The notes below the pieces were generated by a model that worked only from the letters and a program-made list of their open reading frames with translations, made no database searches and was not told the origin of the DNA. Made by a program: the position numbers and the translations under genes. Positions 37,371 to 58,441 of a stretch of 64,000 nucleotides of DNA are shown here, in pieces; positions within the stretch are counted from its first letter, which is position 1; the number at the start of each line of letters is the position of its first letter. Source of the DNA: an uncultured Gammaproteobacteria bacterium (GTDB lineage: Bacteria > Patescibacteriota > Patescibacteriia > Magasanikbacterales > UBA922); assembly GCA_965231005.1 (NCBI GenBank), contig OZ246405.1:546709-610708 (forward strand), read 5' to 3'.

Positions 37371-37391
37371 GCGGTCACGAAATATATTAAA

Positions 37392-37465: not shown

Positions 37466-37471
37466 CATAGG

Positions 37472-39061: not shown

Positions 39062-39191
39062 AAACAAAAACACCAAGGAGAACAAACTCCGATCCAAACA
39101 AATGTGTGCCCTTTGGGTTTCGCTGCTGCAAGGTTCGGAGGGTTACAAAAGAACACCAGATTATGGTGTTTTTTTGATCCATTTTTACATA

Positions 39192-39220
39192 TTGACAAGA
39201 CACAACTTTTTCGCTATACT
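39192..39220 (+). promoter_or_regulatory. Sigma70-like promoter for lepB
   Basis: ttgaca (39192..39197), a 17-nt spacer, then tatact (39215..39220). Confidence 0.5.
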
Positions 39221-39293
39221 CACCACCATTAGTTTGAAGTGCATACCTATTTGGTGTATACTACAATTGATATTTCTCAGGTATCCTGTTTTT

Positions 39294-39911
39294 ATGTCAG
39301 AAAAAAAATTCAACACAAAAGTACATAAAGATGAACATATTCATCTCGAAGAAATAAATGCGTACGGAAAGATCGCACTGTTTTTTCTTGAATTAATAAA
39401 AATAGCACTTATTGCGGGTGTTACTATTGGACTTGTCAGATACTTTTTGTTTAAACCATTCTATGTAAAAGGACAGTCAATGGAACCAAATTATTTTGCT
39501 AGTGAATATCTTATTGTTGATGAAATTACATACCGCTTTCGTGAACCAGAACGTGGAGAAGTAATCGTATTTAAATCACCAGTTGTTCAAAAAGAATTTT
39601 ATCTCAAACGCATTATTGCATTGCCAGGAGAACGAGTAAAAGTTGAAGATGCAAAGGTTATTGTGTATAACGAGGAGTATCCTCAGGGAGTGCTTGTTGA
39701 AGAACAATACATTACAGAACAAACTCCAGGAAAAATAACTGTTACACTTGGACCAGATGAGTATTTTGTTATGGGTGACAATAGAGACGCAAGTTTTGAT
39801 TCGCGTCGATTTGGTGCGATTAGCAGAGAACATATTGTAGGAAAAACATGGCTCCGTGGGTGGCCAATTAAAAGAATTTCAACATTTAAATCTCCAGTCT
39901 ATAATTTATAA
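39294..39911 (+). CDS. lepB: Signal peptidase I
   Basis: ATG at 39294. The TM anchor is followed by GQSMEPNY (catalytic Ser box), KRIIALPGE (Lys box) and GDNRDASFDSRRFG. The track's 384-aa ORF (38757..39911) is an artefactual upstream extension through the GC-rich island. Confidence 0.85.
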   Translation: MSEKKFNTKVHKDEHIHLEEINAYGKIALFFLELIKIALIAGVTIGLVRYFLFKPFYVKGQSMEPNYFASEYLIVDEITYRFREPERGEVIVFKSPVVQKEFYLKRIIALPGERVKVEDAKVIVYNEEYPQGVLVEEQYITEQTPGKITVTLGPDEYFVMGDNRDASFDSRRFGAISREHIVGKTWLRGWPIKRISTFKSPVYNL

Positions 39912-42262: not shown

Positions 42263-42283
42263 TATTTTTTTACATTCATTATG

Positions 42284-42311
42284 AAACGTCCTTGATTGGA
42301 CGTTTTTTTAT
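42284..42311 (+). terminator. Intrinsic terminator after the yqeY-like gene
   Basis: aaacgtcc ttgatt ggacgttt followed by ttttt. Confidence 0.55.
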
Positions 42312-42379: not shown

Positions 42380-44473
42380 ATGAAAAACGCAACACGTTTT
42401 TTCAATAACTTAAAGTATTTGAGCAGACCAAATGCATGGTTGATTGTTTTTGTTTTTATATTTTTTACCCTCTTTTCTTTTGTATTATTTAGTTCTCCAG
42501 AAACAGCGCTTGCACAACAAACAGATACATTTGGAATAGAACAGGTTGATGATTCTGTTGCATTGGGAAGTCAAGATATTCGAATAACGATTGCAAAGAT
42601 TATCCGAACGTTTCTTGGTTTTCTAGCAATTATTGCTGTAAGTCTTGTGCTGTATGCTGGATTTACTATTATGACAGCAGGAGGAAACGAAGAAAAGGTT
42701 ACTGAAGGAAAAAAGATTTTAATAAATGCAGGAATAGGTTTGGCGATTATCATGTCGTCGTTTGCTATTACACAGTTTGTATTAAACAAGTTGGCAGCTG
42801 CAACAGGAATTCGTACTGGACAAGAAGAAGGAGCACTTGTCGAGCCTGGATCTCCTGATTTTCAGAGTTATGCAGCTAGTGGATCTCTTGGATCTATTAT
42901 CAAAGATCATTATCCAGATAGAGATCAAATTGAAGTGTTTAGAAATACAAAAATTGCAGTCACATTTAGAGAGGCAATTGATCCAAGTAGTTTTGTAGAC
43001 AATAAAAATAAAACTTGCTGGAACACAGGAAAAGGTGACGTGGCTGTTTCGTGTGATGACAAAAATACAGAAGATTATTTTGGAGACTGTGTCGGGGATA
43101 ATTGTGATGTGTTAAAAACAGATGTTATTGAAATATACCAAAAAGAAGATAAAGGAAAAACAAAAGTAAAAGCTGCTGTATCATTGCAATATACTGATAA
43201 AAAAGAAGTATTTGGATTTGTGTTAGATCCAATTGATCCAGATCTATTAGGAAATGAAAAAGAAAATACATGGTATGTTGTGGACATAAATAATACACTC
43301 AAGAAATTACAAAAAGATCAAAAAGGAAATGCCATTGGAGTGTTTGACAATGAACTGTACTCTCATTATGAATGGGAATTCCAAACAAATGTAAATGCAG
43401 ATTTTGCACCTCCTGTTGTAAGTATGGTATATCCACCGGCTAATGCAACAATTGCAAGAAATGATGTAATTCAAATTCATTTTAGTGAACCTATTGATCC
43501 TTCTGTTGGGCAAGGGGTCTTAAAAGATGGTGGAGCATTTAAACATATTATTTTCAATAACAAAAAAATTTCCGGAGAATGGAAGATTGTAAATGGATAT
43601 AAAACAATAGAATTTGTTCCAAGCCAAGAATGTGGAGAAAATAGTTGTGGAGATAAATTATATTGTCTGCCTGTGATTTGTCCAGCAGGAAAGGCATGTG
43701 ACAAAGCTCCATATGAAGTATTGGCAAGAACAGCTGAGTTAAAAGATCCAAACAAAAAAGATATTTTTGATGCAAAAGCATTTTCAGGACTTATGGATAT
43801 GGCAGGAAATGCACTCGATGGTAATAAAGACAAAAAGGCTGATAATAAGCCTGCAGTAAAAAATGTTTATGAAATCGATGCATCAGAAAAGAAGGCTGAT
43901 AATTTCTCATGGAATTTTACTGTTGCAGACGAAATAGATCTTACTGCTCCATACATCACAAAAGTGACTCCAGCACTTGATGGACAAAGTATTCCAAAAC
44001 AAGCACCACTTACTATCACATTTAGTCGACCAATGATATTTGATTCGTTATATGGAGGAGTAAACATTAAGGAAACACCAAAAGCAAGTGGTGATGTAGA
44101 TAAACTTTGGTTTGTCCCAAGAGCAGAATTAACAGCAAAAGGGGAGACAAAAGTTACATTTAAACATCGTGACTTTGGTCCAAATGGACAAGATTTATTC
44201 TACTATGTGTCTATTAGTAGTGATGCAAGAAGTGGACAGAATTGTTTATATCCTGGACGTGGCCCATTTGGTTCAAAAAAAGGTGATACAGCTTCTTGCA
44301 CATACGAAGAAGATAAAAATGGAAAAGTGACAAAAAATCAGGGTTGTATTTCTGTTGATTTTGCAGCAAAAACTGACACTGGTTGTGCGCTTACAGACGG
44401 AAAGCAAGGAGAAGAAAAACAAGAAAATATAACAAAGTGTGCAGAATTATTAGATTCAAAGATTCCAAAATAG
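42380..44473 (+). CDS. Large surface protein (697 aa) with an N-terminal VirB2/TrbC-like two-helix pilin module and Cys-containing Ig/beta-rich extracellular region
   Basis: The signal/TM is followed by TDTFGIEQVDDSVALGSQDIRITIAKIIRTFLGFLAIIAVSLVLYAGFTIMTAGGNEEKVTEGKKILINAGIGLAIIMSSFAITQFVLNKL. This is two hydrophobic helices around a short polar loop. It is about 60 percent identical to the N-terminus of the next gene. Confidence 0.65.
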   Translation: MKNATRFFNNLKYLSRPNAWLIVFVFIFFTLFSFVLFSSPETALAQQTDTFGIEQVDDSVALGSQDIRITIAKIIRTFLGFLAIIAVSLVLYAGFTIMTAGGNEEKVTEGKKILINAGIGLAIIMSSFAITQFVLNKLAAATGIRTGQEEGALVEPGSPDFQSYAASGSLGSIIKDHYPDRDQIEVFRNTKIAVTFREAIDPSSFVDNKNKTCWNTGKGDVAVSCDDKNTEDYFGDCVGDNCDVLKTDVIEIYQKEDKGKTKVKAAVSLQYTDKKEVFGFVLDPIDPDLLGNEKENTWYVVDINNTLKKLQKDQKGNAIGVFDNELYSHYEWEFQTNVNADFAPPVVSMVYPPANATIARNDVIQIHFSEPIDPSVGQGVLKDGGAFKHIIFNNKKISGEWKIVNGYKTIEFVPSQECGENSCGDKLYCLPVICPAGKACDKAPYEVLARTAELKDPNKKDIFDAKAFSGLMDMAGNALDGNKDKKADNKPAVKNVYEIDASEKKADNFSWNFTVADEIDLTAPYITKVTPALDGQSIPKQAPLTITFSRPMIFDSLYGGVNIKETPKASGDVDKLWFVPRAELTAKGETKVTFKHRDFGPNGQDLFYYVSISSDARSGQNCLYPGRGPFGSKKGDTASCTYEEDKNGKVTKNQGCISVDFAAKTDTGCALTDGKQGEEKQENITKCAELLDSKIPK

Positions 44474-44527
44474 TTACTAGCTATTAGTTACTAGTTATTA
44501 GCTATTAGCTAGTAACTAATAACTAGT
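44471..44527. repeat. AT-rich inverted-repeat intergenic element (family member B)
   Basis: tagttactagctattagttactagttattagctattagctagtaactaataactagtg is built from ttagttactag and its reverse complement ctagtaactaa. Confidence 0.4.
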
Positions 44528-44539
44528 GAACAAATCTCC

Positions 44540-47500
44540 ATGAGATATTGGAATACAATTACATTTAAGCAAAAAGTAATCACCGCTTTGATGATGGCTT
44601 TTGTTTTGGTTTCTTTCATGCCAATATCTGTATTTGCGGTTGGGGCAGGAGAAAGTTGTCAAAATGCTGTTTGTGATAGTGGGTTAGCATGTAATGATGA
44701 CAAGGTCTGTGTTGCCACAGATACCTTTGGTATACAATCAGTTGATGGAGAAGTATCACTTGGAAAAGAAGATATTAGAATAACCATTACAAAAATAATT
44801 AGTACTGCGCTTGGACTACTCGGTATTATGGCTGTTGGAATCGTGCTCTACGGTGGTTTTAAATGGATGACAGCAGGAGGTAATGAGGAACAAGTATTAG
44901 ATGCCAAAAGATTGCTTATCAATGGTTTGATCGGTTTAGTCATTATTATGTCTGCATGGGCAATTGCTCGTTTTGTTTTGGCAAAGCTTTCAGATGCGAC
45001 TGGTTCGGGATCTGTTCCATGTATTGGAGAAGATTGTAAAAAGGACGAAGAACAAATTAAAGTAGTTATTCCTACTGGTGGTGACGAGTGTGCAGCTGAA
45101 AATGAATTATTTGTTTTACAAAGTATTACACCAAATCAAGATGAAACTGGGATGAATAATATTGTAATGCGTGCAATATTTAGCAAGGATGTTCAAACAC
45201 CACTCGAAGACATATTTGTTATTGAGCAAGACAAAAATCTTAAAAACAAAAATTCATTTACATATAAATATGCAGACGATGCAGGTCAGCGAATTGTTGA
45301 AGCAGTATATAAGGGAGATACGTCTTGTGCAGCTGGAGGAAAGGACTGTTTACCAGAAGGAAAAACATATACAGTAAAGGTTCACAAAAATGTAAAAGGT
45401 CCAGGCGGTGAAGCACTCCAAAATGAAAAGTTAAAAGTTACTTGTCCAGATACAAAAATAGACACACTTGTAAAAGATGGTGCAACATTCAAAGTAGACA
45501 AAAAAGCAACCGATGCACAAGATCCTTCTATCAAAGTTCAGATCTTAGATCAAAGTGGTGTTGTTGTGGCAAGTTTAGGTCAAAAAGAACCAAAAGTTGA
45601 AGCAGGAAAAACATATGATGTTCTTATTACTGCTTTTGATGACAGTGGCATGGGATATATACGTACGATACTCACAGACCATGCATCAAAGAAAATTCTT
45701 GATAAATGGTCTGGACCTTCCAGTGAATCTGACAAGGTCTTCCAAAAAACCTATTCCTTTACTGTTGGTGCTGCTGTTGAAAAAGGTGCTGCCATGAATA
45801 TTGAAGTTGAAGCATTTGATATTGATCATAAAAAAGAAGAAAAGCAGTTAACACTTTCTGTTGTAAATGATAAAAGTGGGGGAGAGGGATCTTATTGTAA
45901 AAAAATCCTAGATTGTAAGCTTGGCCTCAAGTGTGTAGCCAATGTTTGTTCGGCTTCTCCATATATTACAAACATGGACCCAGACAATGGTGCGCCAGGA
46001 AATTGGATCACGATTGCTGGACAACATTTTGGAGAGAAGCCAGGAAAAATTCAATTTTCATTTGATAAAAATAAAAATGGACAGATCGATGGAGCAGACG
46101 AATGGAAAGACGCAAAAATTGTGGCATGTAATGATAAAAAACCAATGTGGACTGATAACTTTGTCATTGTGGAAGTTCCTTCTGACAAAGATATTGGTTT
46201 AGAAGCATTTGTAAAGGTTATTACTGAAAGTGGGGAAGAAGATACAAGTGGAGATGATTTTGGTCCGCTTGCAGCACCATTTGAAAAAGGAGATGGTGTT
46301 CCAAATGGTGTCTTTAAAAGGAATAGTACAAAACGACCAGGATTGTGTCAGGTTGTGGCAAAAAAAGATCTTGCAACACAAGCAAAACCAGAAGAATCAA
46401 TTCATACATTGGGTTCAGGGTTTGGGCCAAAAGAGCAAGCTGGAAAGATTCTTTTTGGAGGAAAAGCATTTGACGGTCTTCACTGGAACGAGGTGAATGT
46501 TGAAATTCCTGTTCCTACAAATCTTAATCCAGCTACTGTTGATGTAAGAGTTCAAGCAAAAAATGGTGAAAAAAGTAATGGAGTATTATTTACTGTTCTT
46601 CCTGGAGATGCAGACCTTGAGCTTCCAATTATTGACAACATAGATCCTGCAACATCTACAGTGAATAGCTTTGTCACTATTACTGGAAGGAATTTTGGTG
46701 ATAGTGGAAAAATATTTCTCACACTGGAAAAAGGTGGTGTGTGTCCTGGCGGTGGATGTATGGAGATAAAAACACCAGCCGTTTGTGGTAACACATGGAG
46801 TGATAAACAAGTTGTAGCAGAAATTCCTAATGTACAAACAATCAACTTTACTAAACCGTACTATGTTGTTATTCAAAATGGAAAAACAAAAAAGAGTAGC
46901 AATGGACAACAGTCACTCAGAGTTATAAAAGGAGATCCAATACCTGGACTTTGTTCTATAACACCAAACAAAGGTCCTGCACCACTTCCTGCAGGGGTTG
47001 ACCTTGTATTAAAAGGAAATAATTTTGATAAACCAACAGTATATTTTTATAAAAAAGGTGCAGATATTAAAAAGGTTTCAGAGTGGTTTAAACAAGCAGT
47101 AGATAAACTAAAAAGTGCTTCGAAAACAGAGATCGTCACACTTTTACCATTAGAAAAAACAGGTAAATCTATGCCAACCGGACCAATTCGTGTTGGTGTA
47201 GGGTCAAAACTCAGTAACAGTGTGAATTATGAAGTTGTGGATTGTACAGTAGATGCATCTGGCAAACCAGGCGAGGAATATCGATGTTGTAGCGCAGAAG
47301 GGCCAGATAAAGGATTGTGGAAACATACAAAGAATGTATGTTCAGGAGAAGTCAGAGATGCAGGATATGTATGGAGATTTACAACAGGAAAGTTTCCAGA
47401 AATTCCATATGTTGTTGAACAAACAACCTGTACTCCTGAAAAAGATGCAAATGGAAAATTAAAAGATGTAAAAGAACTTTCTTCTCCAAGTCCATGGAAA

Positions 47501-50500
47501 GAACAAACTGGTGGTAATGCAGCATGTCTGAACACACGTATTGCAACACGGTTTACAACAAACATGGATCTTTCAACATTAACAAAAGATACGTTTGTAT
47601 TGTATGAATGTGGGACAAAAGAAGAGGATTGTAATGACACAGAGAAAAAGAAAAAAGTTGACTGGAAAATTGATTCAAATACGAAGAAAGAAAAAATCGA
47701 TGTAACCAATACATCAATTCTTGGGACACCAAAAGAACTTAAACCAACAACATGGTATCGAGTAGAATTGTCTAATAAGATTCAATCAAATAATACTGTT
47801 AAAGTTGCAGGCGAAAATCAAGTAGAAAAAATTCCACTCGGAAACACTGCTGGATGTGGCAATGGAACAGCATACTGTTTTACATTTAAAACAGGTTCTG
47901 CGTCGTGTGCAATAACAGGAGCATATATCAATCCAGCAGAACATATTACTCGAACACTTGGTGTTGTACAACATCCAGGGTATCCAATTGATGACAATAT
48001 TGAAAAACCAAAATATCCGCTCAACTACATATTAACAGGAACAACAGATAATTCTTGTGTACCTATTGATGTAGATGGCCTTGGATGGAAATGGACAGGA
48101 CAAAAAGGTGTAGCAGAAGTAACAGAAGGATTTAAAGATACACGAGCAACAGTAAAAGCACTTCAGCATAGTGAAAAAGCAGTGACAATTTCTTCATCAT
48201 TGAAAAAGAACGCAGCAAAAAATATTGAAAAGGATATTACTGCAAAATCTCTCCTTCACATTGATTTACTTGAGCCAGAGGTTATATTCAATGAACCAGA
48301 GTGTCTTGGATCATGTGTGAATCCACAAATACGTGCAGTGTTCAATCGTCATATGGATAAGAGTACCTATGCAAAAGGATTCAAGATGTACACATGTACC
48401 GATGCGAGCTGTGAAAAAAGACAAGTCTTAAAAGACGCAAAGGTAGATGAAATTGCTTCAACGGCAACGGTTATTGATATTGCTCTCAATAATGCGCTTG
48501 CAACAAGTACGTACTATCAGGTTGTTCTTGATAAAAATATTCGCGCGCTTAGTGGTTCTTCTAAGATTGTTGGAAAAGAATTAAAAGAAAAGAATTGGGT
48601 ATTTAAGACACAAGATGATCCAACACCATGTACTGTGTCGTACATGACACTCGATCCAAAAGATCATGTTGCAACACAAGTTGGTGAAAAAACAATATTT
48701 ACAGTAAATCCATATAGTAGTTCAAACAAATGTAGTGCTGTTGGACAGCCACTCGACAGATGGAAATTTGATTATGAATGGAAAACAGGAGATGTAGATG
48801 TTGCAACAGTATCACACTTTAAAAATACACCACTGTCAGCATTGAACCAGTCATGTTCAACAAGCTGTCTTCCAAGAGGAAGCGATATCTTACGAACAGG
48901 AACCGACAATCAAAAAATTGTTTGTGGAGATGGAGTAGTAAGTAAAGGAGAGGATTGTGACATTGGCATTCAAGGAGAAATTGTTGGACAGTCTTGTACA
49001 ATAAACTGTTTGCGTCCTGGAAATAATAATATTGATAAAGCAAACACGTGTGGTGATAAAAATATTGATAAACAATTTGGTGAAGAATGTGATCCAGGAA
49101 AAGATAAAGAAGGAAATGTTATAACAGATGATCCTGCATGTACGTCACTTTGTCAGCACAGAGGGTCAACACCATTTGATGGGTCAGCAAAAGCAAATTG
49201 TGGTGATGGAATTACTGACAAGGCAAAAGGTGAAGAATGTGATCCAGGAAGTGATAAAAATAAAAAAGTAAAAACAGATGATCCGTTCTGCACATCTAGC
49301 TGTCTCAAACGAGGAACAGATCTTGCTGCAGCATGGTGTGATGTTCAAAAGAATAAACCAGCTGAGTGTAAGGCAGCAAAAAGTGTTTGTGGTAATCTTC
49401 CAAATAGTGTTCTTGAATTAGATGAAGAATGTGAAATTGAATTTGATCCTGCTGATAAAAAATGGGGTCTGAGAATTCGCGGTGTTCCCGGGTTGTACCA
49501 AAAACATGAGACAAAGAAATTAGCACAATTATACTGTTCAAACAATTGTCGTTTGATCAATCTTTGTGAATTGCAAAATAAATTACCAAATAACGTTCCA
49601 AATGATTTAAATGGATGGTGGTGTCAGGCAGGACAAGAAGGATGTACAGATTCTTGTAAGATTGCAGGGGCATCTCCTGAATATTCAGAGCCATCAATCT
49701 GCGGTGATGCAGTAAAAGGAACTGGGGAATATGGTGCCTGTGAATTAGAAAAGGCAGACGTCAATCCAAATGACGGTCCTGCACAAGTTGTTACAGCAGT
49801 TGGAAAGAAAAAAACACAGGGAAATGCACAAAAAACATTTATTCAAGCAACACTTTCATCAAACAAAAATATTATTGCAAAGGCAGATTATGCATTGCAA
49901 TGTGGATTTACAGAATATGTCGAAGTGAGTGTTGGAAAGAAATTTAATGATTGTCCAAACGGAACAGATGGAGTATCATCGTCTGATTCTTGTTGTTATC
50001 CACGACCAAAGCGTTCTCTTGTATATCCAAAAGACGGATCAGGATTGACAGACCAAAATAATATTTGTCGAAACACGTCTATTCATGTGGAATACGATAA
50101 GGAAATAAGTCTTGAAAGTGTAAAGAAAAATGCAATGTTATTGCGTGGATACAAAGCACCATATGCATGTGACAATACAAAGGGAGAAAAAGATGTAAGC
50201 AAAGAAGTTGGAACATACCTTGCGTATGATACATCAAATGAACCTTCTGGATGGTTTGAAAAGATTTGGTTTAGCATTAAAAAATTCCTTGTATCTGTAT
50301 TTAAAGTTGATTCACTTGCAATTAACTTCAATGTCACAACATATATCAAGGATGTAGAAAAGATTTCTGTATGGTGTGAAATTGGCGGTGGTCTAAAACC
50401 ATCTGTCGATGTTCAAAAAGACGCACAAGGGAAAGTAGTAAAAAGTACAGTGCATTTATCACTAACAAATGTTCTTGGTGCAGATTCTGTGTATGCTGTA

Positions 50501-53500
50501 ATGCTTAAGAGTGGTCCAGATGGTGTACAAGATACAAATGGTGTGAGCATTGCAAATCCAGACGTGTTATTGCTGCGAGATGATATGTGGGCGTTTAAAA
50601 CAGGAAAAGATATTTGTAAATTAGAAAAAGTTGATGTACAACCAAATCTCTATTTGTTTAATAAGCCAGAAACATCTCATAATTTCCAGGCGGTTGCGTA
50701 TGGAAAAAATAATGTTCTTCTTACCCCAACACCTGCATACAAGTGGGATTGGGATTGGCAACCAAAGGAAAATCCTGTATTTGATATTCCAGCAAAAGGT
50801 TCTGCAACATCGACTTCAGGAGTGACCATTGCTTCAAAAAATGTGCAGGGAACACTTGCTGCATTTGCAACTGCACGGGTTACTGCAGACGTAAGTGCAA
50901 ACAACAATCAAGTTGGTAAGATTTTCTCTGGTATTTCAGAACTTACATCACAATTTTGTGAAACACCATGGCCAGCATATCAAAAAGATGGAACATGGAA
51001 ACCATACAATGATGCGAAATTTAATTTTAGCTTTAAGTACTGTTCAGATGCTGGAAAAACTGGTGTCACAACAGACGATCTTCCATTTTTGAAAAAAGTT
51101 GTCCCAGATTCAAAACGTTGTTCAGTTACTGGTGCATTTTGTAAGGTAGACAGTGATTGTGAAATTGCGCCTGCATATCCAACAGATACATATACATTGA
51201 TTCAAACTCCAAGTGGAGGTTATGACTTCAAAGAATTAAAAGACGTCGGTGCACTCTGCTTTGGTCGAGTAAAACCAAAACAATATATTGCATGTAAAAC
51301 AGCACTAGACTGTCCTGCAGATTATCCAGTTTGTGGTTGGAGTGACAATGGATGTGTAAAATATAACGTCCCTCCTAAGCCAATTCCTGCACCAAATAAT
51401 AATGCATGTACAACAAAAGAATATCCAGATGCATTTAAGTCAAGCACATTTATTGATCATGCAAAAGTAAAACAAACATGTGAAGGAAAAGAACCTGTGT
51501 TTGATAAAAAAGATTCACTAACACAGCCAATCGAAAAGTTATTGTTTTTTGATGAACATGGGAAAAACAGTGATGCTATTGGTGTACAGATTTTTGATAA
51601 CAATGGTACAACTGGTGATGGAAACAAACGACTCACAGCACTTCAGTGGTATACGAAACGTTTCCCAGATGCGCCTGCTCCACAAAAAGTATCTTCAGGA
51701 AACTATGACGCAGTCACAGACGGAAATAATTATTATATAAATGCTTTGAACATTGTAAAAAATCCACAAAGTGGAACAAAAGTATTTAGCAACATTTATG
51801 TATTTAGTATTAGTGAAGGTGCACAAGAAAATACAAAAAAAGTGTTTGAAGAAGTGTTACAATCACTTACCTTTAATACAAACTTAACTGACTATGGATA
51901 TTGTATTGATAGTGCAATTGATCCTGCAAAAGTTGACTTTACAGAAGAAGTAACAGAAGGAAAGAAATATGCATATAGCAAAGTAACATGTTCTACTGAC
52001 TTTGATTGTGCAGATAAATCTGGAAAGCCACTCAAAGGAACAAATGGTATTTGTTCAAATGCAAAGACCAAATTCTTGCGCGATTGGCAGCGTCTTGGTC
52101 ATATTAAAGATGCACAAACAAAAATAAAAGCATATCAAGATAAAATAGAAAATAAGACATTCCCAGAGTTAAAAGGTGGTTCGTTTATTCCAGGGTATTC
52201 CACATCAAAATGGTCATCATGGGGAACGCTTAGCAGTATTGTTGGGGGATTGAATACAGACCCGATTAATCAATGGACACAGTGTGATGGTGCTGATCCT
52301 CAGACATGTTGGAATTCTGGACAGTCACAATATTTATGTCCATTGAAGTCAAGTGTGTATGAGTATATTTACAAACCGCCAACACCAGATGGAAAAGTTG
52401 CATCTACAGGAGAATACACTATTCATGTCCCTCTTGAATACTTCCAAGACAAATCACAACTTTGGGTAGAATTTGGAAAAGACTTTATTCTTAGTGATGC
52501 GTCTCTTGGCATTACACAATTTTGTACACCATCAACAACATATAGTCCGTTTAGTGGAAGTTGTGGAGACGGTGTTGTTCAACCAACTGAACAATGTGAT
52601 CCTGTAGGCGGGACAAAAATAGTCGATTCAAGTTTATGTAAGGATCTCAAACAAGGAGACAGCTGTGTTGCTACATGTACAAATCAATGTACATGGGAGT
52701 ACAAACCAGAATTTTTCTCACTGTGTAATGAAAAACTAACTGGACAACAAATTTGTTGTGGAAACGGTATTGTTCAGGGAAATGAATCATGTGATGATGG
52801 CCCACTCAATGGAACATATGGTCATTGTAATGTGTATTGTAAAGCACCAAGTCCACAGTACTGTGGAAATAACAAACGTGATTACATAGACGCAAATAAA
52901 AATAATAAGTACGATCCAGGTGAAAACAATCAAGGTGAAACATATCTTGAGTTGTGTGATCCTTCAGCAGGCGACTGGGATTTATACAATATAGATGAAA
53001 AGAAATCATGTAGTCCAACATGTCAGGGACCAGGGTTGTTCTGTGGTGATGAAATTGTTTCAAATGGAGAGCAGTGTGATGATGGAAATAACATAAGCAA
53101 AGATGGATGTAGTAGCACGTGTAAAAAAGAAAACATTGCCTGCATGAAAAAATTGCCGCAGTACTTATACAATTCAGTAAATGGAAATACAAAGATTCTC
53201 ATTACTCGAATTGATAAGAAAGCGTACGAAGAACAAGTAAAGAATTTTGCAGAAAAGAAATTTAAAGTAGATGCAAAATTTGTACCCGGCACAACACATA
53301 TTGATGAATGTTTTGAAATGACTGGAGATGCGATTTGTTCTGCAGCCACAGGAGATAAATGTTTGTCAGTCCAAGGAGATGGAAAGCAAAAATTTGAAAA
53401 TTATGATTGTAACAAAGTTATTAATAAAAAGTTTGCTCCAAACATTGAAAATCCTAAAGACATTCGGTTTATTGTGACGTGTAAAGGTGAATACAGTGGA

Positions 53501-55642
53501 GACGTTCTAGATGATCAGAAAAAAGTAGAAGTTGGTTGTGGAAACTTGAAAGTTGAAAATTCAGAAACAACTCCAGGTACAGACTTAGAAGAAGTTTGTG
53601 ATGAAGGAACAAAGAATGGAATCAAATGTACACCAGGATATGGAGAGGCTTGTACCTACTGTGCAGCAGATTGTAAAAAAGTCCTTACTGTTGATCCTGT
53701 TGCATACTGTGGAAATCAAGCTATTGATGTAAACCATGGAGAAAAATGTGAATTTGAAGGCACAGTAGATAAACAAACAACAGTATATAAAACAAATATT
53801 GGAAAACCAGGAAATAGAGAAGAAATCGCTTGTGACGATGCTGGAAGGTATGAATGTCTAAAACAATGTACAGTACTATCAAAACAATGTGTTACTTGTG
53901 GTTTGGTTAAAAAGAAGACAGAGGCGCGTGTGGCACTTATCAATCCAATGAAGCAAGATTTTTCAACAAATGATGTTCCTGGACTTCCTGCAACTATTGC
54001 ACTCGTAAGAAAGGACTCTCCAAATACAAAAGAAGATTACGAATTGCTGAAATGGAGAGTAATGTCTGCGTCAAAAGATAAAAAGGACGAATTTAAACTC
54101 AATACGAGTTTTACATTTGTTGCTCCATTTGAAAAAGATAAAATTGGAACAATAGAAACATCATTACTTTGTGACAAAGATGCAAATGGAAATGGGGGAT
54201 ATGGTGTTGTGTTAGGCGGTGGCATTGGAGGAAAAACAGGAATCTATGACAACAAAGGACTTTCAGAAAAACTAAAGGCAGGGGCTGTTGATTTCTTTGA
54301 ATATCCTGTGAGTGGTGAACTTGGATTTGTAAAGCATGAATATGTTTATTCTCCTCCAGTTCCAGAAAACGTATTCCGTGTAGTTGTAAAATGGACTGAC
54401 AAGGAAAATAAAAAAGGATTGAAGTTCCAAGGAAATGTTCAAAATCCATGGGTGAATTCTGGAAAAGTTGTTAATTATCTTTCTTCATTTAATAAAGATG
54501 ATAAATTAAGTTATATCTGTTCAACTGGTAGAGATTTTGCCAAGGATTGTCCAGACAGACATCGAAATAAAGTATATATCCATCCATATGTAAATGGAGA
54601 GACGATTTTCACACAATCATTTACTATTGATGCAAGTCAATCAGTTGGTTCATACCGTTTCTTCGTTGATAGCTTAACTGGTCCTATAGGATTGAACACA
54701 AATACAGAATTGACTGTTGAGGTCTATGAACACAGAAAAGGGCAGGATGACGAATATTCAATATTAAAGCCTGCAAAAGTGTTTTCTCTTGCCGCTGCTG
54801 CTGATACAAGTAGTAACAAACTGGCAAAATACTGGCATGTATTCAACATTGTAAATGATGGAAAATCATATCAAGTGGAGTCAGTACAAGATGAACAAGG
54901 TGCTGTACAACCAAATGGGTCAATTGAAACAAATTTTGATACATTAAAGAAAAATACAATCGCAGATTCTCCAGATGCGCCTCCAGGGTATTCACTTCTT
55001 TCATTTTCAGAAAAAAAAGCAAAGAACTTTTTTGTAGAAGAAAATCCACCAGCAACGTTTAATCCAAAAGGGATAATGTCAGCATTTCGAACAAATGCAA
55101 AATGGTATAAAAAAGGTGATGACGGATTTATTTTTGATTCACATATTGCAAAAGAAAATTCTGTTTTGCAAACTACTGATTGTGGGTCTGTAGCAGATTG
55201 TACAAAAGTTGTTGATGGTAAGAATAATTATCGAGGGATAAATTCTGGGAAAAAGAATAATAAGGGAGCAACCTTGCGACTAGTAGGAAATGCTACAGAA
55301 ATGGAGGAAAGCAAAATATATCAATATGTTGTTGACTACAGTCCACAGCAAAAAAAGCAAAATGGAGAGTATGATTTTCCATTCTTAAAGGATTTTATAA
55401 CAAAAAATCCTACGTTTAGTATGGACGTTCGGATCGGTGTTGCAGATCAGAAAGACAAAAATAAATTTGTTATGAGTAATGTTGTTGGTCGATTAAACAA
55501 AAAGGATTTGAATAAGATTTCAACAACAGCCAAAAAGTGGTATGTCTACAAAGCTGTACGAATTGGAAAGAATATTTTTATAGATGTTATAGACAAATAT
55601 ATGCTTGGTGGAGCTAAGCCACCATATGCTCAATATGAATAA
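44540..55642 (+). CDS. Giant surface protein (3700 aa) with a VirB2/TrbC-like N-terminal module and many Myxococcus-type cysteine-rich repeats
   Basis: The N-terminus is TDTFGIQSVDGEVSLGKEDIRITITKIISTALGLLGIMAVGIVLYGGFKWMTAGGNEEQVLDAKRLLINGLIGLVIIMSAWAIARFVLAKL. At least 8 repeats follow the pattern CGDG(I/V)....E.CD.G........C (CGDGVVSKGEDCDIG, CGDKNIDKQFGEECDPG, CGDGITDKAKGEECDPG, CGDGVVQPTEQCDP, CGNGIVQGNESCDDGPLNG, CGDEIVSNGEQCDDGNNISKDGCSSTCK, CGNQAIDVNHGEKCEFEG). This is a single uninterrupted 11.1-kb ORF. Confidence 0.8.
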   Translation: MRYWNTITFKQKVITALMMAFVLVSFMPISVFAVGAGESCQNAVCDSGLACNDDKVCVATDTFGIQSVDGEVSLGKEDIRITITKIISTALGLLGIMAVGIVLYGGFKWMTAGGNEEQVLDAKRLLINGLIGLVIIMSAWAIARFVLAKLSDATGSGSVPCIGEDCKKDEEQIKVVIPTGGDECAAENELFVLQSITPNQDETGMNNIVMRAIFSKDVQTPLEDIFVIEQDKNLKNKNSFTYKYADDAGQRIVEAVYKGDTSCAAGGKDCLPEGKTYTVKVHKNVKGPGGEALQNEKLKVTCPDTKIDTLVKDGATFKVDKKATDAQDPSIKVQILDQSGVVVASLGQKEPKVEAGKTYDVLITAFDDSGMGYIRTILTDHASKKILDKWSGPSSESDKVFQKTYSFTVGAAVEKGAAMNIEVEAFDIDHKKEEKQLTLSVVNDKSGGEGSYCKKILDCKLGLKCVANVCSASPYITNMDPDNGAPGNWITIAGQHFGEKPGKIQFSFDKNKNGQIDGADEWKDAKIVACNDKKPMWTDNFVIVEVPSDKDIGLEAFVKVITESGEEDTSGDDFGPLAAPFEKGDGVPNGVFKRNSTKRPGLCQVVAKKDLATQAKPEESIHTLGSGFGPKEQAGKILFGGKAFDGLHWNEVNVEIPVPTNLNPATVDVRVQAKNGEKSNGVLFTVLPGDADLELPIIDNIDPATSTVNSFVTITGRNFGDSGKIFLTLEKGGVCPGGGCMEIKTPAVCGNTWSDKQVVAEIPNVQTINFTKPYYVVIQNGKTKKSSNGQQSLRVIKGDPIPGLCSITPNKGPAPLPAGVDLVLKGNNFDKPTVYFYKKGADIKKVSEWFKQAVDKLKSASKTEIVTLLPLEKTGKSMPTGPIRVGVGSKLSNSVNYEVVDCTVDASGKPGEEYRCCSAEGPDKGLWKHTKNVCSGEVRDAGYVWRFTTGKFPEIPYVVEQTTCTPEKDANGKLKDVKELSSPSPWKEQTGGNAACLNTRIATRFTTNMDLSTLTKDTFVLYECGTKEEDCNDTEKKKKVDWKIDSNTKKEKIDVTNTSILGTPKELKPTTWYRVELSNKIQSNNTVKVAGENQVEKIPLGNTAGCGNGTAYCFTFKTGSASCAITGAYINPAEHITRTLGVVQHPGYPIDDNIEKPKYPLNYILTGTTDNSCVPIDVDGLGWKWTGQKGVAEVTEGFKDTRATVKALQHSEKAVTISSSLKKNAAKNIEKDITAKSLLHIDLLEPEVIFNEPECLGSCVNPQIRAVFNRHMDKSTYAKGFKMYTCTDASCEKRQVLKDAKVDEIASTATVIDIALNNALATSTYYQVVLDKNIRALSGSSKIVGKELKEKNWVFKTQDDPTPCTVSYMTLDPKDHVATQVGEKTIFTVNPYSSSNKCSAVGQPLDRWKFDYEWKTGDVDVATVSHFKNTPLSALNQSCSTSCLPRGSDILRTGTDNQKIVCGDGVVSKGEDCDIGIQGEIVGQSCTINCLRPGNNNIDKANTCGDKNIDKQFGEECDPGKDKEGNVITDDPACTSLCQHRGSTPFDGSAKANCGDGITDKAKGEECDPGSDKNKKVKTDDPFCTSSCLKRGTDLAAAWCDVQKNKPAECKAAKSVCGNLPNSVLELDEECEIEFDPADKKWGLRIRGVPGLYQKHETKKLAQLYCSNNCRLINLCELQNKLPNNVPNDLNGWWCQAGQEGCTDSCKIAGASPEYSEPSICGDAVKGTGEYGACELEKADVNPNDGPAQVVTAVGKKKTQGNAQKTFIQATLSSNKNIIAKADYALQCGFTEYVEVSVGKKFNDCPNGTDGVSSSDSCCYPRPKRSLVYPKDGSGLTDQNNICRNTSIHVEYDKEISLESVKKNAMLLRGYKAPYACDNTKGEKDVSKEVGTYLAYDTSNEPSGWFEKIWFSIKKFLVSVFKVDSLAINFNVTTYIKDVEKISVWCEIGGGLKPSVDVQKDAQGKVVKSTVHLSLTNVLGADSVYAVMLKSGPDGVQDTNGVSIANPDVLLLRDDMWAFKTGKDICKLEKVDVQPNLYLFNKPETSHNFQAVAYGKNNVLLTPTPAYKWDWDWQPKENPVFDIPAKGSATSTSGVTIASKNVQGTLAAFATARVTADVSANNNQVGKIFSGISELTSQFCETPWPAYQKDGTWKPYNDAKFNFSFKYCSDAGKTGVTTDDLPFLKKVVPDSKRCSVTGAFCKVDSDCEIAPAYPTDTYTLIQTPSGGYDFKELKDVGALCFGRVKPKQYIACKTALDCPADYPVCGWSDNGCVKYNVPPKPIPAPNNNACTTKEYPDAFKSSTFIDHAKVKQTCEGKEPVFDKKDSLTQPIEKLLFFDEHGKNSDAIGVQIFDNNGTTGDGNKRLTALQWYTKRFPDAPAPQKVSSGNYDAVTDGNNYYINALNIVKNPQSGTKVFSNIYVFSISEGAQENTKKVFEEVLQSLTFNTNLTDYGYCIDSAIDPAKVDFTEEVTEGKKYAYSKVTCSTDFDCADKSGKPLKGTNGICSNAKTKFLRDWQRLGHIKDAQTKIKAYQDKIENKTFPELKGGSFIPGYSTSKWSSWGTLSSIVGGLNTDPINQWTQCDGADPQTCWNSGQSQYLCPLKSSVYEYIYKPPTPDGKVASTGEYTIHVPLEYFQDKSQLWVEFGKDFILSDASLGITQFCTPSTTYSPFSGSCGDGVVQPTEQCDPVGGTKIVDSSLCKDLKQGDSCVATCTNQCTWEYKPEFFSLCNEKLTGQQICCGNGIVQGNESCDDGPLNGTYGHCNVYCKAPSPQYCGNNKRDYIDANKNNKYDPGENNQGETYLELCDPSAGDWDLYNIDEKKSCSPTCQGPGLFCGDEIVSNGEQCDDGNNISKDGCSSTCKKENIACMKKLPQYLYNSVNGNTKILITRIDKKAYEEQVKNFAEKKFKVDAKFVPGTTHIDECFEMTGDAICSAATGDKCLSVQGDGKQKFENYDCNKVINKKFAPNIENPKDIRFIVTCKGEYSGDVLDDQKKVEVGCGNLKVENSETTPGTDLEEVCDEGTKNGIKCTPGYGEACTYCAADCKKVLTVDPVAYCGNQAIDVNHGEKCEFEGTVDKQTTVYKTNIGKPGNREEIACDDAGRYECLKQCTVLSKQCVTCGLVKKKTEARVALINPMKQDFSTNDVPGLPATIALVRKDSPNTKEDYELLKWRVMSASKDKKDEFKLNTSFTFVAPFEKDKIGTIETSLLCDKDANGNGGYGVVLGGGIGGKTGIYDNKGLSEKLKAGAVDFFEYPVSGELGFVKHEYVYSPPVPENVFRVVVKWTDKENKKGLKFQGNVQNPWVNSGKVVNYLSSFNKDDKLSYICSTGRDFAKDCPDRHRNKVYIHPYVNGETIFTQSFTIDASQSVGSYRFFVDSLTGPIGLNTNTELTVEVYEHRKGQDDEYSILKPAKVFSLAAAADTSSNKLAKYWHVFNIVNDGKSYQVESVQDEQGAVQPNGSIETNFDTLKKNTIADSPDAPPGYSLLSFSEKKAKNFFVEENPPATFNPKGIMSAFRTNAKWYKKGDDGFIFDSHIAKENSVLQTTDCGSVADCTKVVDGKNNYRGINSGKKNNKGATLRLVGNATEMEESKIYQYVVDYSPQQKKQNGEYDFPFLKDFITKNPTFSMDVRIGVADQKDKNKFVMSNVVGRLNKKDLNKISTTAKKWYVYKAVRIGKNIFIDVIDKYMLGGAKPPYAQYE

Positions 55643-55645
55643 TAT

Positions 55646-56038
55646 ATGACAAATAGTAAAAAAATATTAATTGCAATTTTATTTATCATCATTATTGGAG
55701 TTATTGCGTATGTATTTACGAGTATGCGTTCAAACAAACAAGATGATAAAAATGTTCTACAAAATTTAGAAGAAAGTGTAGAGGATGAATTTCAAATTTT
55801 TGTAAAACCACCAACAATAGAAAACGATGATGATGCAGATGGTATTTCAAACGATGATGAAAAAAAGAGTGGAACAAGTAATACAGAATTTGATACAGAT
55901 GGAGATGGAATAAGTGATTTTGATGAAATTAATACATGGAAAACAGATCCAACAAAAAATGATACAGACGGAGACGGTTTTGCAGATGGTTTTGAAATTA
56001 TTGGTGGATACAATCCATTAGGAGAAGGACAATTATAA
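55646..56038 (+). CDS. Membrane-anchored protein with thrombospondin type-3-like Ca-binding repeats
   Basis: The TM helix is ILIAILFIIIIGVIAYVF. Repeats include DDDADGISNDDE, DTDGDGISDFDE and DTDGDGFADGFE, ending GGYNPLG. Confidence 0.55.
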   Translation: MTNSKKILIAILFIIIIGVIAYVFTSMRSNKQDDKNVLQNLEESVEDEFQIFVKPPTIENDDDADGISNDDEKKSGTSNTEFDTDGDGISDFDEINTWKTDPTKNDTDGDGFADGFEIIGGYNPLGEGQL

Positions 56039-56074: not shown

Positions 56075-56938
56075 ATGTTTGACGATCATAAACCAACAAC
56101 ACCAGCAGCGGGTGGTTCTGCTCCGTCTAATCTTCCTCTTGGTGAGGCAGAGGATATGTTTTCAGGAGTTGATGCTGCACCTCCTCCACCTCCTCCTGCA
56201 TCACCAAATCCTCCTGAAGCTTCAGAAGCACCACCTGTGCAGCAAACAGTGCCTGAGACTGCATTGGGTGCTGGTGTTCTTAAACCAAAAACAGAGCAGC
56301 CCCTAGAACCAGAACCAAAGGCTATTCCAGCTCCAGTACAACCAGCAGCGCCATCCATTCCACTTGCACCTCAACCTGGAGCAGATCAGTCGCAGCCATT
56401 GCCAGAGACATATGATATAAAAGAGCCTACAACCAGTCGCGGAATTATTATGATTATTATTATTTTGGTCGTTATTGTTATTCTTGGTGGTGGTGGATGG
56501 TTTATATATGCAAATATTATAAAATCAAATGATACAAGTGATTTTGGAAATGTTCCGTCGACACAAAATCCTCCAGCTGAACAGCCTGGATTGATTTCTG
56601 ACACAGCATTGGATTCAAATGATTCAAATTCAACAGGAGAGCTCACAAACAAAGTTATTGATGACAATTTGTTATTTGGTAAACCAGTAGATCAAGACAA
56701 TGATGAATTAGATGATCTTCGTGAAGGACAAATTGGTACAAATCCAATTCATTGGGATACAGATGGTGATGGGTTAAGTGATGGAGAAGAAGTTATTATT
56801 TGGAAAACTGATCCGCTGAGTCCTGACACAGATAAAGATGGGTATGATGATGGTGCAGAAGTAAAAGCTGGATATAGTCCAACAGGGCCAGGACGTCTAT
56901 TTGAGCCACCAACCGCAACAAGTACCGTTACACAGTAA
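56075..56938 (+). CDS. Pro-rich membrane protein with TSP3-like repeats
   Basis: A Pro/Ala-rich N-terminus is followed by the TM helix IIMIIIILVVIVILGGGGWFIY. Repeats DTDGDGLSDGEE and DTDKDGYDDGAE end with AGYSPTGPG. Confidence 0.55.
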   Translation: MFDDHKPTTPAAGGSAPSNLPLGEAEDMFSGVDAAPPPPPPASPNPPEASEAPPVQQTVPETALGAGVLKPKTEQPLEPEPKAIPAPVQPAAPSIPLAPQPGADQSQPLPETYDIKEPTTSRGIIMIIIILVVIVILGGGGWFIYANIIKSNDTSDFGNVPSTQNPPAEQPGLISDTALDSNDSNSTGELTNKVIDDNLLFGKPVDQDNDELDDLREGQIGTNPIHWDTDGDGLSDGEEVIIWKTDPLSPDTDKDGYDDGAEVKAGYSPTGPGRLFEPPTATSTVTQ

Positions 56939-57166: not shown

Positions 57167-58441
57167 ATGTTTGGAAAGAAAAAAAAGAATAAAGAAAAAA
57201 AAGACTCTGCAGCATCGCAATACGATGTCAAAGCCATGCCAGATATTTTTTATGGTGGAAAAAATCCTACAATCTATGAAGAGCAAGCGCCTGCTTCAAA
57301 GAAGACAACATCGAAAAATAAAAAAAATATTCCAGAAAAAAAGATTGCTCCTGTCCCAAAGAAACCCATTTCGCCTCCTGTTCCGTCTCCAACTGGCGTG
57401 CACGTAGATAAGAAAAAAGGAAAAATTAATATTCCAAAAGGTGCAAAGCCAATGCCAAAAAGAAAGCCAGGTTTATTTGGCAATAAGCTGTTTGTGATTG
57501 GTGGAATCATAGTTATTGTTCTTGCACTGGGTGGCATTACGTGGTTCTATCTTGGTCAGCGAGTTGAACCTGATACAACTCCACCTCCACCAACGTTACC
57601 AGTTCCAGAATCTTCAGATACAGCTGCTGACTCGACCGATACATTGGAAGATGAAGATGATACTCCTCTTGAAGCATCTGAGGATACAGATGAAGAAAAT
57701 ACAGATTCTTCACAGGCTCTTGGTATACAGTTTCCACGAATTATATTATCTGACAGTGCTGACATAGATGCAGACCAGTTGACTGATCTTGAAGAAGAAT
57801 TGTTTAAAACAGATAGTGGTGTTTGGGATACAGATAAAGACGGTTATTTTGATGGTCAAGAGGTCGCGAATCTATATAATCCAACTGGCTTTGCACCAGT
57901 AAAAATCATTGATTCTGGATTGGTCAGTGAATATATAAATCCAACATGGGGATACAGAATATATTATCCAGTGAGTTGGGTTATTGGGGAGGTAGACGCA
58001 AATGCAAGTCAAGTACTTATTAGTGATATTACTGGTGATTATGTGGAAGTACTTGTGAAACAAAAGCAGGCGACGGAGACCTTTTCTGACTGGTTTGCAC
58101 GTGAAGCAAGTGATCAATTTATTACAGATATCCAAGAAAAAGAGAATAGATTTAAGCAATCTGTCTGGAAAAGAAAAGATGGTATGGTTGGATTTATTGT
58201 TGATAATACGGCTGTATATGTGATAATCTATCATCCAGATGAAACAGATCAAGTCGGCTTCCGTCATGTTATGGAAATGATGTTGCAAAGTTTCCGCCTT
58301 GGTAGTGGAAATATTGTGCTACCAGATCAGCCTGTACTGCCAAAGCCACCAGCTTTCGGATCAGACACGACAACAGCAACATCGAGTGACCTGGGAACAG
58401 CTACATCAACAACACTAACGACAACAACAGAAAACGAATAG
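57167..58441 (+). CDS. Lys-rich/Pro-rich membrane protein with a TSP3-like repeat and a C-terminal globular domain
   Basis: A KKKNKEKK N-terminus is followed by the TM helix LFVIGGIIVIVLALGGITWFYL. An acidic/Pro region follows, then VWDTDKDGYFDGQEVANLYNPTG and a C-terminal domain of about 180 aa. Confidence 0.55.
   Translation: MFGKKKKNKEKKDSAASQYDVKAMPDIFYGGKNPTIYEEQAPASKKTTSKNKKNIPEKKIAPVPKKPISPPVPSPTGVHVDKKKGKINIPKGAKPMPKRKPGLFGNKLFVIGGIIVIVLALGGITWFYLGQRVEPDTTPPPPTLPVPESSDTAADSTDTLEDEDDTPLEASEDTDEENTDSSQALGIQFPRIILSDSADIDADQLTDLEEELFKTDSGVWDTDKDGYFDGQEVANLYNPTGFAPVKIIDSGLVSEYINPTWGYRIYYPVSWVIGEVDANASQVLISDITGDYVEVLVKQKQATETFSDWFAREASDQFITDIQEKENRFKQSVWKRKDGMVGFIVDNTAVYVIIYHPDETDQVGFRHVMEMMLQSFRLGSGNIVLPDQPVLPKPPAFGSDTTTATSSDLGTATSTTLTTTTENE

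Follow-up and report, generated by a model that had tools for sequence, protein, structure and literature searches.

A VirB2-like pilin module at the N-termini of two neighbouring surface proteins of ABY1 Patescibacteria, one of them 3700 residues long

What does a pilin-like hairpin do at the head of a 3700-residue protein? The question is raised by two adjacent genes, here called A (697 amino acids, aa) and B (3700 aa), in a 64-kb stretch of contig OZ246405.1 (positions 546,709 to 610,708, forward strand; hereafter the window). Small VirB2-like pilins are widespread in Patescibacteria, often in arrays of 2–11 genes (PMC12102498, PMC10633639, PMC12857230, PMC11665869). In Ca. Southlakia epibionticum, the only genetically tractable Patescibacterium, VirB2-like pilins and the type IV secretion system (T4SS) are essential for epibiotic growth (PMC10633639), and the role of Patescibacterial VirB2-like pilins and T4SSs has been called 'completely unknown' (PMC11665869, PMC10633639). 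None of these four papers mentions a pilin module fused to a large ectodomain, and no description of giant or modular VirB2-like pilins in Patescibacteria was found in open-access papers or on bioRxiv; databases automatically label some members 'pilin' or 'cysteine-rich repeat protein'. From sequence comparison and structure prediction, we consider it moderately probable that A and B are modular VirB2-like pilins that form a cell-surface adhesive fibre system belonging to the core of class ABY1.

The N-terminal hairpin shared by A and B

Both open reading frames (ORFs) are uninterrupted in the window. A public protein collection holds exact entries for A in full and for B from residue 18, on a 1,232,850-bp NCBI contig, and B is therefore no artefact of the window; the 11-kb frame reported in the initial annotation is intact and is conserved at full length in relatives. 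The ATG at 44540 provides B with a positively charged n-region, which is missing from the database start at M18.

By BLASTP, A and B match each other with E=3e-34 and ~60% identity, and the match is limited to A residues 48–142 and B residues 60–154; outside this module, no similarity between the two proteins was detected. Hydropathy analysis places three hydrophobic segments in each protein, namely a signal or transmembrane (TM) segment (A 16–45, B 11–40), helix a (A 67–102, B 81–111) and helix b (A 112–139, B 122–151), with the loop (W/I)MTAGGNEE(K/Q)V lying between helices a and b. In the AlphaFold2 (AF2) models, the module forms two long helices, at positions 20–55 and 60–97 of the B module (module numbering; predicted local distance difference test score, pLDDT, ~90 in the helices) and at residues 67–98 and 104–142 of A. 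At the predicted cleavage site of A, residues A45 and Q46 are at least 90% conserved in the alignment of A homologues. Just ahead of the pilin module, B carries a lineage-specific four-cysteine knot (residues 40–57). With a signal peptide, two hydrophobic helices and a short polar loop, A and B share the design of PF18895 pilins and depart from the stand-alone size of that family (~100–150 aa), being 697 and 3700 aa long.

In VirB2 and TraA pilins, both ends of the hairpin lie outside and the loop is cytoplasmic, as established by the F- and T-pilus structures. The same arrangement, with the ends out and the loop in, is predicted for A and B because they combine a Sec signal peptide with two helices and a Cys-rich, Ig-like and hence extracytoplasmic ectodomain.

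The family assignment of the module is supported by several profile comparisons. PF18895 (T4SS_pilin; Pfam gathering cut-off 26.6 bits) matches A with 29.1 bits and B with 37.0 bits when the whole protein is searched, and the B module by itself with 43.9 bits; it is also above the cut-off in 29/29 aligned module homologues and in 14/14 diverse giants. PF04956 (TrbC/VirB2) is the next-best family. Its cut-off of 27.9 bits is not reached by the B module (17.8 bits, E=3.9e-3), sub-threshold matches occur in 9 of the 29 module homologues (best E=3.1e-4), and a few members of the A family carry a precomputed PF04956 match. NF045849 (Mbov_0395 family) matches A with 30.6 bits and B with 31.8 bits, below its equivalog cut-off of 40 bits. 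In 72,556 plasmids, the best tblastn match is a 151-aa Mbov_0395-family protein, WP_207531472.1, which is encoded on a Pontibacillus megaplasmid and adjoins a VirB4-like (CD1110) ATPase and a peptidoglycan hydrolase. When the module profile was aligned with this Firmicute protein by hhalign, the hairpin was matched with 97.6% probability (E=2.8e-12). No family of the N-methylation type (type IV pilins) was found in Pfam or NCBIfam scans of A and B.

Homology of the module to monoderm T4SS pilin-like proteins is established at the level of sequence; membership in the classical VirB2/TrbC family is not. The initial annotation had proposed that both proteins start with a VirB2/TrbC-type pilin module followed by large extracellular domains, with two hydrophobic helices around an MTAGGNEE loop behind a signal or TM segment. 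This proposal is borne out by the PF18895 matches, by PF04956 as the next-best family and by the hhalign result, as well as by the hydropathy profile and the AF2 models: the module matches a pilin family and is a two-helix hairpin. Where both Pfam families had been named as a check, only PF18895 is above its cut-off in A and B, and PF04956 stays below. Short stand-alone twins of the module (120–240 aa) were looked at as well and set aside; of the two inspected, one runs off a 751-bp contig and the other is split on an 821-bp contig of coverage 1.

The module is the best-conserved part of both proteins, with an identity of ~0.5–0.6 as compared with 0.25–0.4 for the ectodomain. Among 121 non-redundant modules, G50, G58, N72 (which is intramembrane), G76 and L94 are invariant, and G8, L18, L38, G39, Y48, M54, I79, I86 and F89 are conserved in at least 97%. 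Within the helices, few positions are variable in this set, and they form no visible stripe on a lipid-facing side. Since all helix faces are constrained and the module is conserved better than the rest, specific protein contacts are indicated rather than passive anchoring. The hairpins probably contact each other, the intervening small pilin in lineages that encode it, and/or an assembly machine. As a source of the similarity between the modules of A and B, concerted evolution or gene conversion was considered. In four Magasanikbacteria pairs, the A–B module identity within a genome (0.61–0.71) is at or above the cross-genome identity of the same class. In the lineage of loci L077 and L078, by comparison, the modules group by class (0.62–0.67 within versus 0.31–0.47 across), and the idea was dropped for this reason as not general.

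Ectodomains and the ABY1 locus

Full-length A is predicted by AF2 with a pLDDT of 82.5 and a predicted template modelling score (pTM) of 0.74. A disordered linker of ~20 residues follows helix b and leads into tandem Ig-like sandwiches, for which Foldseek matches to protocadherin, titin, LdtMt2 BIg and CopC Ig-like folds were obtained. In B, the TIG region repeats the motif P..I..I.P..G....VTI.G.NFG, as read from the sequence, and TIG domains recur in 13/14 orthologous giants; the strongest Big_5 domain of B has counterparts in 14/14 orthologues, and further Big_5-like units are dispersed along the rod. Comparison of A and B with the sequences of the Protein Data Bank (PDB) gave nothing useful.

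The cysteine-rich repeats of B were sought with the motif CG[DN]x3-14[EQGA]x0-1C[DE]. It occurs nine times (at residues 1462, 1504, 1554, 1617, 1721, 2675, 2740, 2835 and 3057), as compared with a mean of 0.03 matches in shuffled B sequences. At the level of hidden Markov models (HMMs), TIGR02232 reaches 37.9 bits (cut-off 20.8) in just two stretches, and DUF4215 (PF13948) scores 23.6 bits in B, under its cut-off of 27, and up to E=1e-31 in orthologues. Most repeat copies of B are too degenerate for the HMMs, and the orthologue consensus at the first cluster shows canonical CGDG..D.GE.CDDGN...DGCS..C units. The at least eight Myxococcus-type repeats originally claimed are thus present by motif, with only two stretches recognised by HMM. 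The long disulfide-rich stalk that they were said to form needs correction: two repeat clusters exist, and they cover ~700 of the ~3550 residues of the B ectodomain, the remainder being largely Ig-like (Big_5, TIG) with unassigned beta-rich regions.

The distal end of B differs from lineage to lineage. The last 200 residues (3501–3700) are lineage-specific, and among 14 diverse complete giants, VWA was found in 6/14, Laminin_G_3 (a ConA-like lectin) in 3/14 and DUF4215 in 10/14, with the VWA and lectin domains located distally. Where the giant is shorter (2200–2700 aa), it is followed by a gene for another large protein, with VWA plus DUF4215 or Laminin_G_3 plus DUF4215 and an N-terminal hydrophobic segment of its own; in these genomes, the distal end of the fibre seems to be provided by a second subunit. 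Adhesins usually combine a conserved stalk with variable tips, and the same combination is seen in the giants.

Such proteins are not confined to the window. When the B module was compared with 1.84 billion cluster representatives, 25,601 proteins were matched at E<=1e-3. Among the best 150 of these, 49 are at least 2500 aa long (up to 5289 aa) and carry the module at residues ~35–135, and 48 of the 49 giants align with B over ~2,400–3,590 of its residues, most of them over at least ~3,000. A second group of ~600–780 aa in the same best 150 consists of A orthologues. For A, 212 full-length homologues with 36–55% identity were found; nearly all those with a name are from Candidatus Magasanikbacteria, and NCBI calls some of them 'pilin' or 'Mbov_0395 family pilin-like conjugal transfer protein'. 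In a scan of one genome per GTDB species, at least 571 of the 600 stretches among the matches listed encode a relative.

Our comparison of 79 retrieved species-level loci reveals that the two genes travel together. In 79/79, wherever the contig extends beyond the A-like gene (537–768 aa), the very next gene carries the same module; this second gene encodes 2200 to more than 3550 aa unless it is truncated by the contig end or by the limit of the 10-kb flank. The loci come from Magasanik-, Falkow-, Komeili- and Uhrbacteria and the 'Patescibacteria group', that is, from class ABY1. The gene order is lepB-hisS-rpsU-yqeY-A-B-TSP3 genes-ybeY-dgkA-ftsA-ftsZ. Upstream, signal peptidase I is a neighbour in 58 of the 79 loci, HisRS in 66, an S21-like protein in 44 and YqeY in 46; downstream, one to two bitopic TSP3 membrane proteins are encoded (directly behind the giant in at least 15 of the 28 loci whose downstream region is visible), followed in close relatives by ybeY-dgkA-ftsA-ftsZ. 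The cassette belongs to the vertically inherited core of class ABY1 and is no mobile T4SS island. In this regard, the architecture that had been called unusual is so in comparison with the literature and is not rare, being that of a class-wide conserved gene pair. Many ABY1 records of metagenome-assembled genomes that hold the locus (L004, L005, L016 and others) are titled 'uncultured Gammaproteobacteria bacterium'; these titles look mislabelled, as gene content and homology are those of Patescibacteria.

In an Uhrbacteria-like ABY1 lineage, the A-like gene and the giant are separated by the gene of a complete stand-alone pilin of 123–129 aa that shares the module design, giving a three-gene pilin array of modular, small and giant members. 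This small pilin has 19 relatives, two of which were checked for context: P0279 occupies the same position, whereas P0281, which is more distant, belongs to an array of small pilins. No small pilin is found at the locus in the lineage of the window.

The terminator-like hairpin behind yqeY suggests that gene A opens a new transcription unit, and together with the gap of only 3 nt between the B stop and the following TSP3 gene it is consistent with an A-B-TSP3 operon. The spacer between A and B is 66 nt long in the window and forms a near-perfect hairpin built of TTACTAG-like repeats. At most related loci, the A–B spacer is just 3–15 nt and the hairpin is not conserved, which marks it as lineage-specific; it may act as an RNA stabiliser or processing site and tune the A:B expression ratio. 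LepB, encoded four genes upstream of A, is likely the processing enzyme of A and B, and its linkage may also be mere housekeeping synteny. The lepB ORF as listed has 384 aa with the S26 domain at 211–369 only. As its orthologues have ~200–240 aa, the true start is probably internal, or the stretch of higher G+C (~0.44) upstream holds something else. In two of the three bitopic proteins encoded after B, the N-terminal region that precedes the TM segment is probably cytoplasmic; it is long and Pro-rich in one of them and Lys-rich in the other.

Adhesive fibre, pilus, anchor or scaffold

In the mechanism that we propose, A and B would be exported by Sec and cut by signal peptidase I at an AxA site, after which the hairpin would sit in the membrane with both ends out and the conserved M-T-x-G-G-N-E-E-K loop in the cytoplasm. 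The flexible linker of ~20 residues would lead to the ectodomain, comprising three to four Ig-like domains in A. In B, Ig-like domains (Big_5 and TIG) and disulfide-rich acidic repeats would build a rod with an extended length of roughly 100 nm or more, capped by a variable distal domain, which is VWA or a ConA-like lectin in orthologues. The hairpins would make specific contacts with each other, with the small pilin and/or with an assembly machine, a passive anchor being unlikely. The resulting fibre system would bind a host cell or a substrate, and the TSP3 membrane proteins, if co-transcribed as the gene order suggests, would probably be Ca2+-dependent accessory parts.

Several observations weigh against this mechanism. 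The Foldseek search with the hairpin model against the PDB gave no match with E<=1e-3 and no VirB2 or TraA in the top 50, its top matches being generic helical hairpins, including ATP synthase subunit c, so that the fold does not discriminate; nor did the module profile match any PDB sequence. T4SS genes (VirB4, VirB6, coupling protein, PrgI) were not found in the 64-kb window, and no T4SS component is among the genes that recur within 10 kb of A and B in the 79 loci, so a functional link to a T4SS is hypothetical. B itself has no recognisable VWA or lectin domain, an adhesive role is suggested by domain types alone, and the signal-peptide cleavage and AxA sites were assigned by eye. The strong conservation of the hairpin could also reflect a partner other than pilins. 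To our knowledge, polymerisation into an extracellular pilus has been shown experimentally for no member of the PF18895 family.

Under true pilus display, which we regard as a serious but doubtful possibility, the hairpins would be extracted from the membrane by a VirB4-type T4SS encoded elsewhere and placed in a VirB2-like pilus of small pilins, either at its tip or sparsely along its length. A and B would in that case be the tip adhesins missing from the essential Patescibacterial T4SS and would correspond in function to VirB5 or to the modular minor pilins of type IV pili. The module keeps all conserved features of the family, scores as well with PF18895 as a genuine small pilin does (29–44 bits versus 38 bits for that of locus L078) and is constrained on every helix face, and a small pilin is indeed encoded between A and B in some lineages. 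From the known F- and T-pilus structures, the termini of the hairpin are extracellular, so that a C-terminal fusion points outward. Patescibacterial T4SSs have pilins and no VirB5 (PMC12857230), and Magasanikbacteria genomes are VirB4-positive (PMC12102498, Table S1). Yet T4SS genes are lacking from the vicinity of all 79 loci, the closest relatives of the module are fused proteins or contig-end fragments and not T4SS-linked small pilins, the small pilin is missing from the locus in the window lineage, and an ectodomain of ~3550 aa per subunit would be sterically demanding. As a tentative and rather improbable extension, the Patescibacterial T4SS pilus could owe its adhesive tip or side subunits to A and B, and it would then be an organelle of host attachment or contact with a specificity lent by pilins with giant ectodomains. 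If, on the other hand, the hairpin has been exapted as a plain two-pass anchor, without oligomer or machine, A and B would be ordinary tethered surface proteins. A housekeeping locus without T4SS neighbours, a generic hairpin fold and a flexible linker between hairpin and ectodomain would fit such an anchor. We judge it unlikely: simple anchors are normally poorly conserved, whereas in both proteins no part is conserved better than the hairpin. Across 121 non-redundant sequences, its intramembrane Asn and several Gly residues are invariant, and its cytoplasmic loop and extracellular DTFG...DIR lead-in are conserved; moreover, the same module is kept by two, sometimes three, neighbouring genes.

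The proteins might also have a structural role in the ABY1 envelope, as a surface layer or spacer with a possible connection to division, and be no host-binding device at all. Such an envelope scaffold would suit a class-wide, vertically inherited locus beside lepB and ybeY-dgkA-ftsA-ftsZ, the compact and well conserved ectodomain of A, Big_5 Ig-like domains as found in S-layer-type proteins, and partners with Ca2+-binding TSP3 repeats. The distal domains, by comparison, differ by lineage (VWA, lectin, other) and the tail of B is lineage-specific, which is typical of ligand-binding tips rather than of lattice proteins, and the fts synteny may have no functional meaning; we consider this explanation quite improbable. 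Practically no weight is left for an artefact, be it a mis-assembled giant ORF or a shared N-terminus due to chance or low complexity, in view of the BLASTP match between A and B, the same protein in a 1.23-Mb public contig, and dozens of independent assemblies with co-linear giants of 3000–5300 aa. Returning to the adhesive fibre system that we favour, the proposal of the initial annotation that a pilus- or surface-tethered fibre serves attachment is strengthened by the VWA and lectin domains of orthologues, and its 'pilus' part is weakened by the lack of T4SS genes near the 79 loci.

These observations indicate that a whole class, ABY1, fuses a pilin module to adhesin-like ectodomains of 600–5300 aa that comprise Ig rods, disulfide repeats and VWA or lectin tips, and such pilin–adhesin fusions point to a role of the pilin family in surface contact or attachment. 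The 'modular pilin' principle, so far described for type IV pili only, would be extended to the unrelated VirB2 family. If the pilus reading is true, A and B would be the first 'modular VirB2 pilins', in the role that VirB5 plays in diderm systems. If the hairpin is only an anchor, a useful annotation is still gained, as hundreds of 'hypothetical' or 'pilin' giants become one conserved surface-fibre operon. In uncultured lineages, the conserved hairpin positions and the natural ectodomain 'tags' also offer targets for work on localisation and host range and for multimer modelling.

Further features and comparison with known systems

The features of the window and of related loci are collected in Table 1. 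The window has a G+C content of ~36%, and its genes are typical of Patescibacteria, with other giant surface or toxin genes in addition; large surface proteins and toxin candidates, including the 3011-aa RHS protein and B, make up roughly half of the 64 kb. The other large surface proteins (1543, 1996 and 709 aa) carry no pilin module.

Table 1. Features of the window and, where an L number is given, of related loci (positions within that locus)
Feature	Position	Strand	Description and basis
Gene A	42380..44473	+	697 aa; modular VirB2-like pilin (predicted): signal peptide, pilin hairpin, disordered linker, tandem Ig-like (Big_5) domains
A signal peptide, residues 1–45	42380..42514	+	Sec-type: positive n-region, hydrophobic core, ...ETALA|QQ (AxA); hydropathy
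A pilin module, residues 46–142	42515..42805	+	DTFG...DIR extracellular lead-in, helix a, MTAGGNEE loop, helix b; PF18895 29.1 bits
A–B intergenic hairpin	44474..44533	+	~23 bp, dG -29.3 kcal/mol, z -5.5, no U-tract
Gene B	44540..55642	+	3700 aa; giant modular VirB2-like pilin or adhesin (predicted)
B signal peptide, residues 1–33	44540..44638	+	MRYWNTITFKQK... h-region ...SVFA|VG; hydropathy, sequence
B pilin module, residues 58–155	44711..45004	+	PF18895; AF2 hairpin
B ~472–900	45953..47239	+	Cys-knot, then ~4 IPT/TIG Ig-like domains; Pfam TIG 45.3 bits
B 1259–1357	48314..48610	+	Best-scoring Big_5 Ig-like domain; Pfam Big_5 66 bits
B 1462–1740	48923..49759	+	Cysteine-rich acidic repeats, first cluster; 5 motif copies; regular expression versus shuffles
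B 2675–3110	52562..53869	+	Cysteine-rich repeats, second cluster; 4 motif copies including the canonical one at 2832–2865; TIGR02232, DUF4215, regular expression
B 3130–3700	53927..55639	+	Distal beta-rich region; no family match; conservation profile
130-aa bitopic membrane protein	55646..56038	+	TSP3 (Ca2+-binding) repeats; Pfam TSP3_bac 46.5 bits; same gene behind the giant in other contigs
287-aa Pro-rich bitopic membrane protein	56075..56938	+	TSP3 repeat; conserved cassette member
424-aa bitopic membrane protein	57167..58441	+	No assigned family; kept downstream in close relatives (393–432 aa)
Signal peptidase I (LepB, Peptidase_S26)	38757..39911	+	Pfam S26 143.9 bits; conserved in 58/79 loci
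Intrinsic-terminator-like hairpin and T-run	42283..42306	+	3' of yqeY; terminator scan, sequence reading
1543-aa protein	3853-8484		Transglutaminase-like core
1996-aa and 709-aa proteins	11395-17385, 29672-31801		Ig/PKD/CARDB domains
3011-aa RHS-repeat protein	19081-28116		CARDB domains, C-terminal GIY-YIG nuclease-like domain; polymorphic-toxin type
Leucine-rich repeat (LRR) and HEAT-repeat proteins	28119-28982, 29005-29652		After the RHS gene; possible immunity or accessory genes
tRNA cluster	37090-37466		tRNA-Val(GAC), second 71-nt tRNA-Val(GAC) (ARAGORN only, not Rfam), tRNA-Ile(GAT)
Small pilins between A and giant	L077 11890-12261; L078 11749-12138; L085 10001-10372; L086 6025-6396
Separate distal-type proteins	L025 13189-15645; L038 18694-22632; L033 11556-14894

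Among related sequences, VirB2-like hairpins were also found in tandem, with 2–11 modules in single polypeptides (P0002, P0004, P0026 and P0013; locus L083, 194-3941). Examples are proteins of 552 aa with 6 modules, 820 aa with 8 and 1147 aa with 11, and P0002 lies within an array of five further small PF18895 genes. Such concatenated 'poly-pilins' seem to have no description in the cited literature on Patescibacterial pilins.

With the PF18895 pilin arrays of Ca. Southlakia epibionticum and Ca. Nanosynbacter lyticus TM7x (Wang 2023, PMC10633639; Quinonero-Coronel 2025, PMC12102498), A and B have in common the family, the phylum, the design and the tandem arrangement of divergent copies. Those pilins are small and are described as T4SS-linked, whereas A and B carry C-terminal ectodomains of ~550 and ~3550 aa and are encoded among housekeeping genes, with T4SS genes absent from the surrounding 10 kb. 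The hairpins are also homologous to those of the Mbov_0395 family (NF045849) of monoderm T4SS clusters and integrative and conjugative elements, e.g., WP_207531472.1, whose known members differ in having ~150 aa and in lying beside VirB4-like ATPases. The predicted ends-out topology, the Sec signal peptide with its predicted cleavage by signal peptidase I and a sub-threshold profile similarity are shared with classical VirB2/TrbC/TraA pilins (PF04956). In contrast to these, A and B fall under the Pfam cut-off, gave no significant Foldseek or profile match to solved pilins, belong to a monoderm organism and bear huge C-terminal extensions.

The ectodomains recall other systems. B and its orthologues contain the CGDG..(E/Q)xCD..N...DGC...C units of Myxococcus-type repeat proteins (TIGR02232/DUF4215); the copies in B differ in being mostly degenerate and a minority component of a rod of Ig domains. 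A long, repetitive Ig-like rod with a presumed tip is also known from the PrgB-type adhesins of Gram-positive conjugation and from other giant adhesins, and a cell–cell role for A and B would be in keeping with it. This likeness is one of description only, and those adhesins are held by LPXTG/sortase or by retention in a secretion system, whereas A and B would be anchored by a pilin-type hairpin.

The closest parallel in logic is offered by the modular type IV pilins (IPR012902) of S. sanguinis, PilB with a vWA module and PilC with a ConA-like lectin module (Raynaud 2021, PMC8179133). In both cases, a small N-terminal pilin carrier is joined by a linker to a bulky effector and is encoded beside other pilins, and the effector classes, VWA and ConA-like lectin, are the same as in the orthologous giants. 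The type IV pilins start with a class III signal peptide and one N-terminal helix and depend on PilB/PilC-type machines for assembly, whereas in A and B a VirB2-type hairpin of two helices follows a Sec signal peptide; PMC8179133 gives 860 aa for the largest of the modular type IV pilins, as compared with 3000–5300 aa for the giants. The modular type IV pilins are an analogue of A and B in logic and not in membership.

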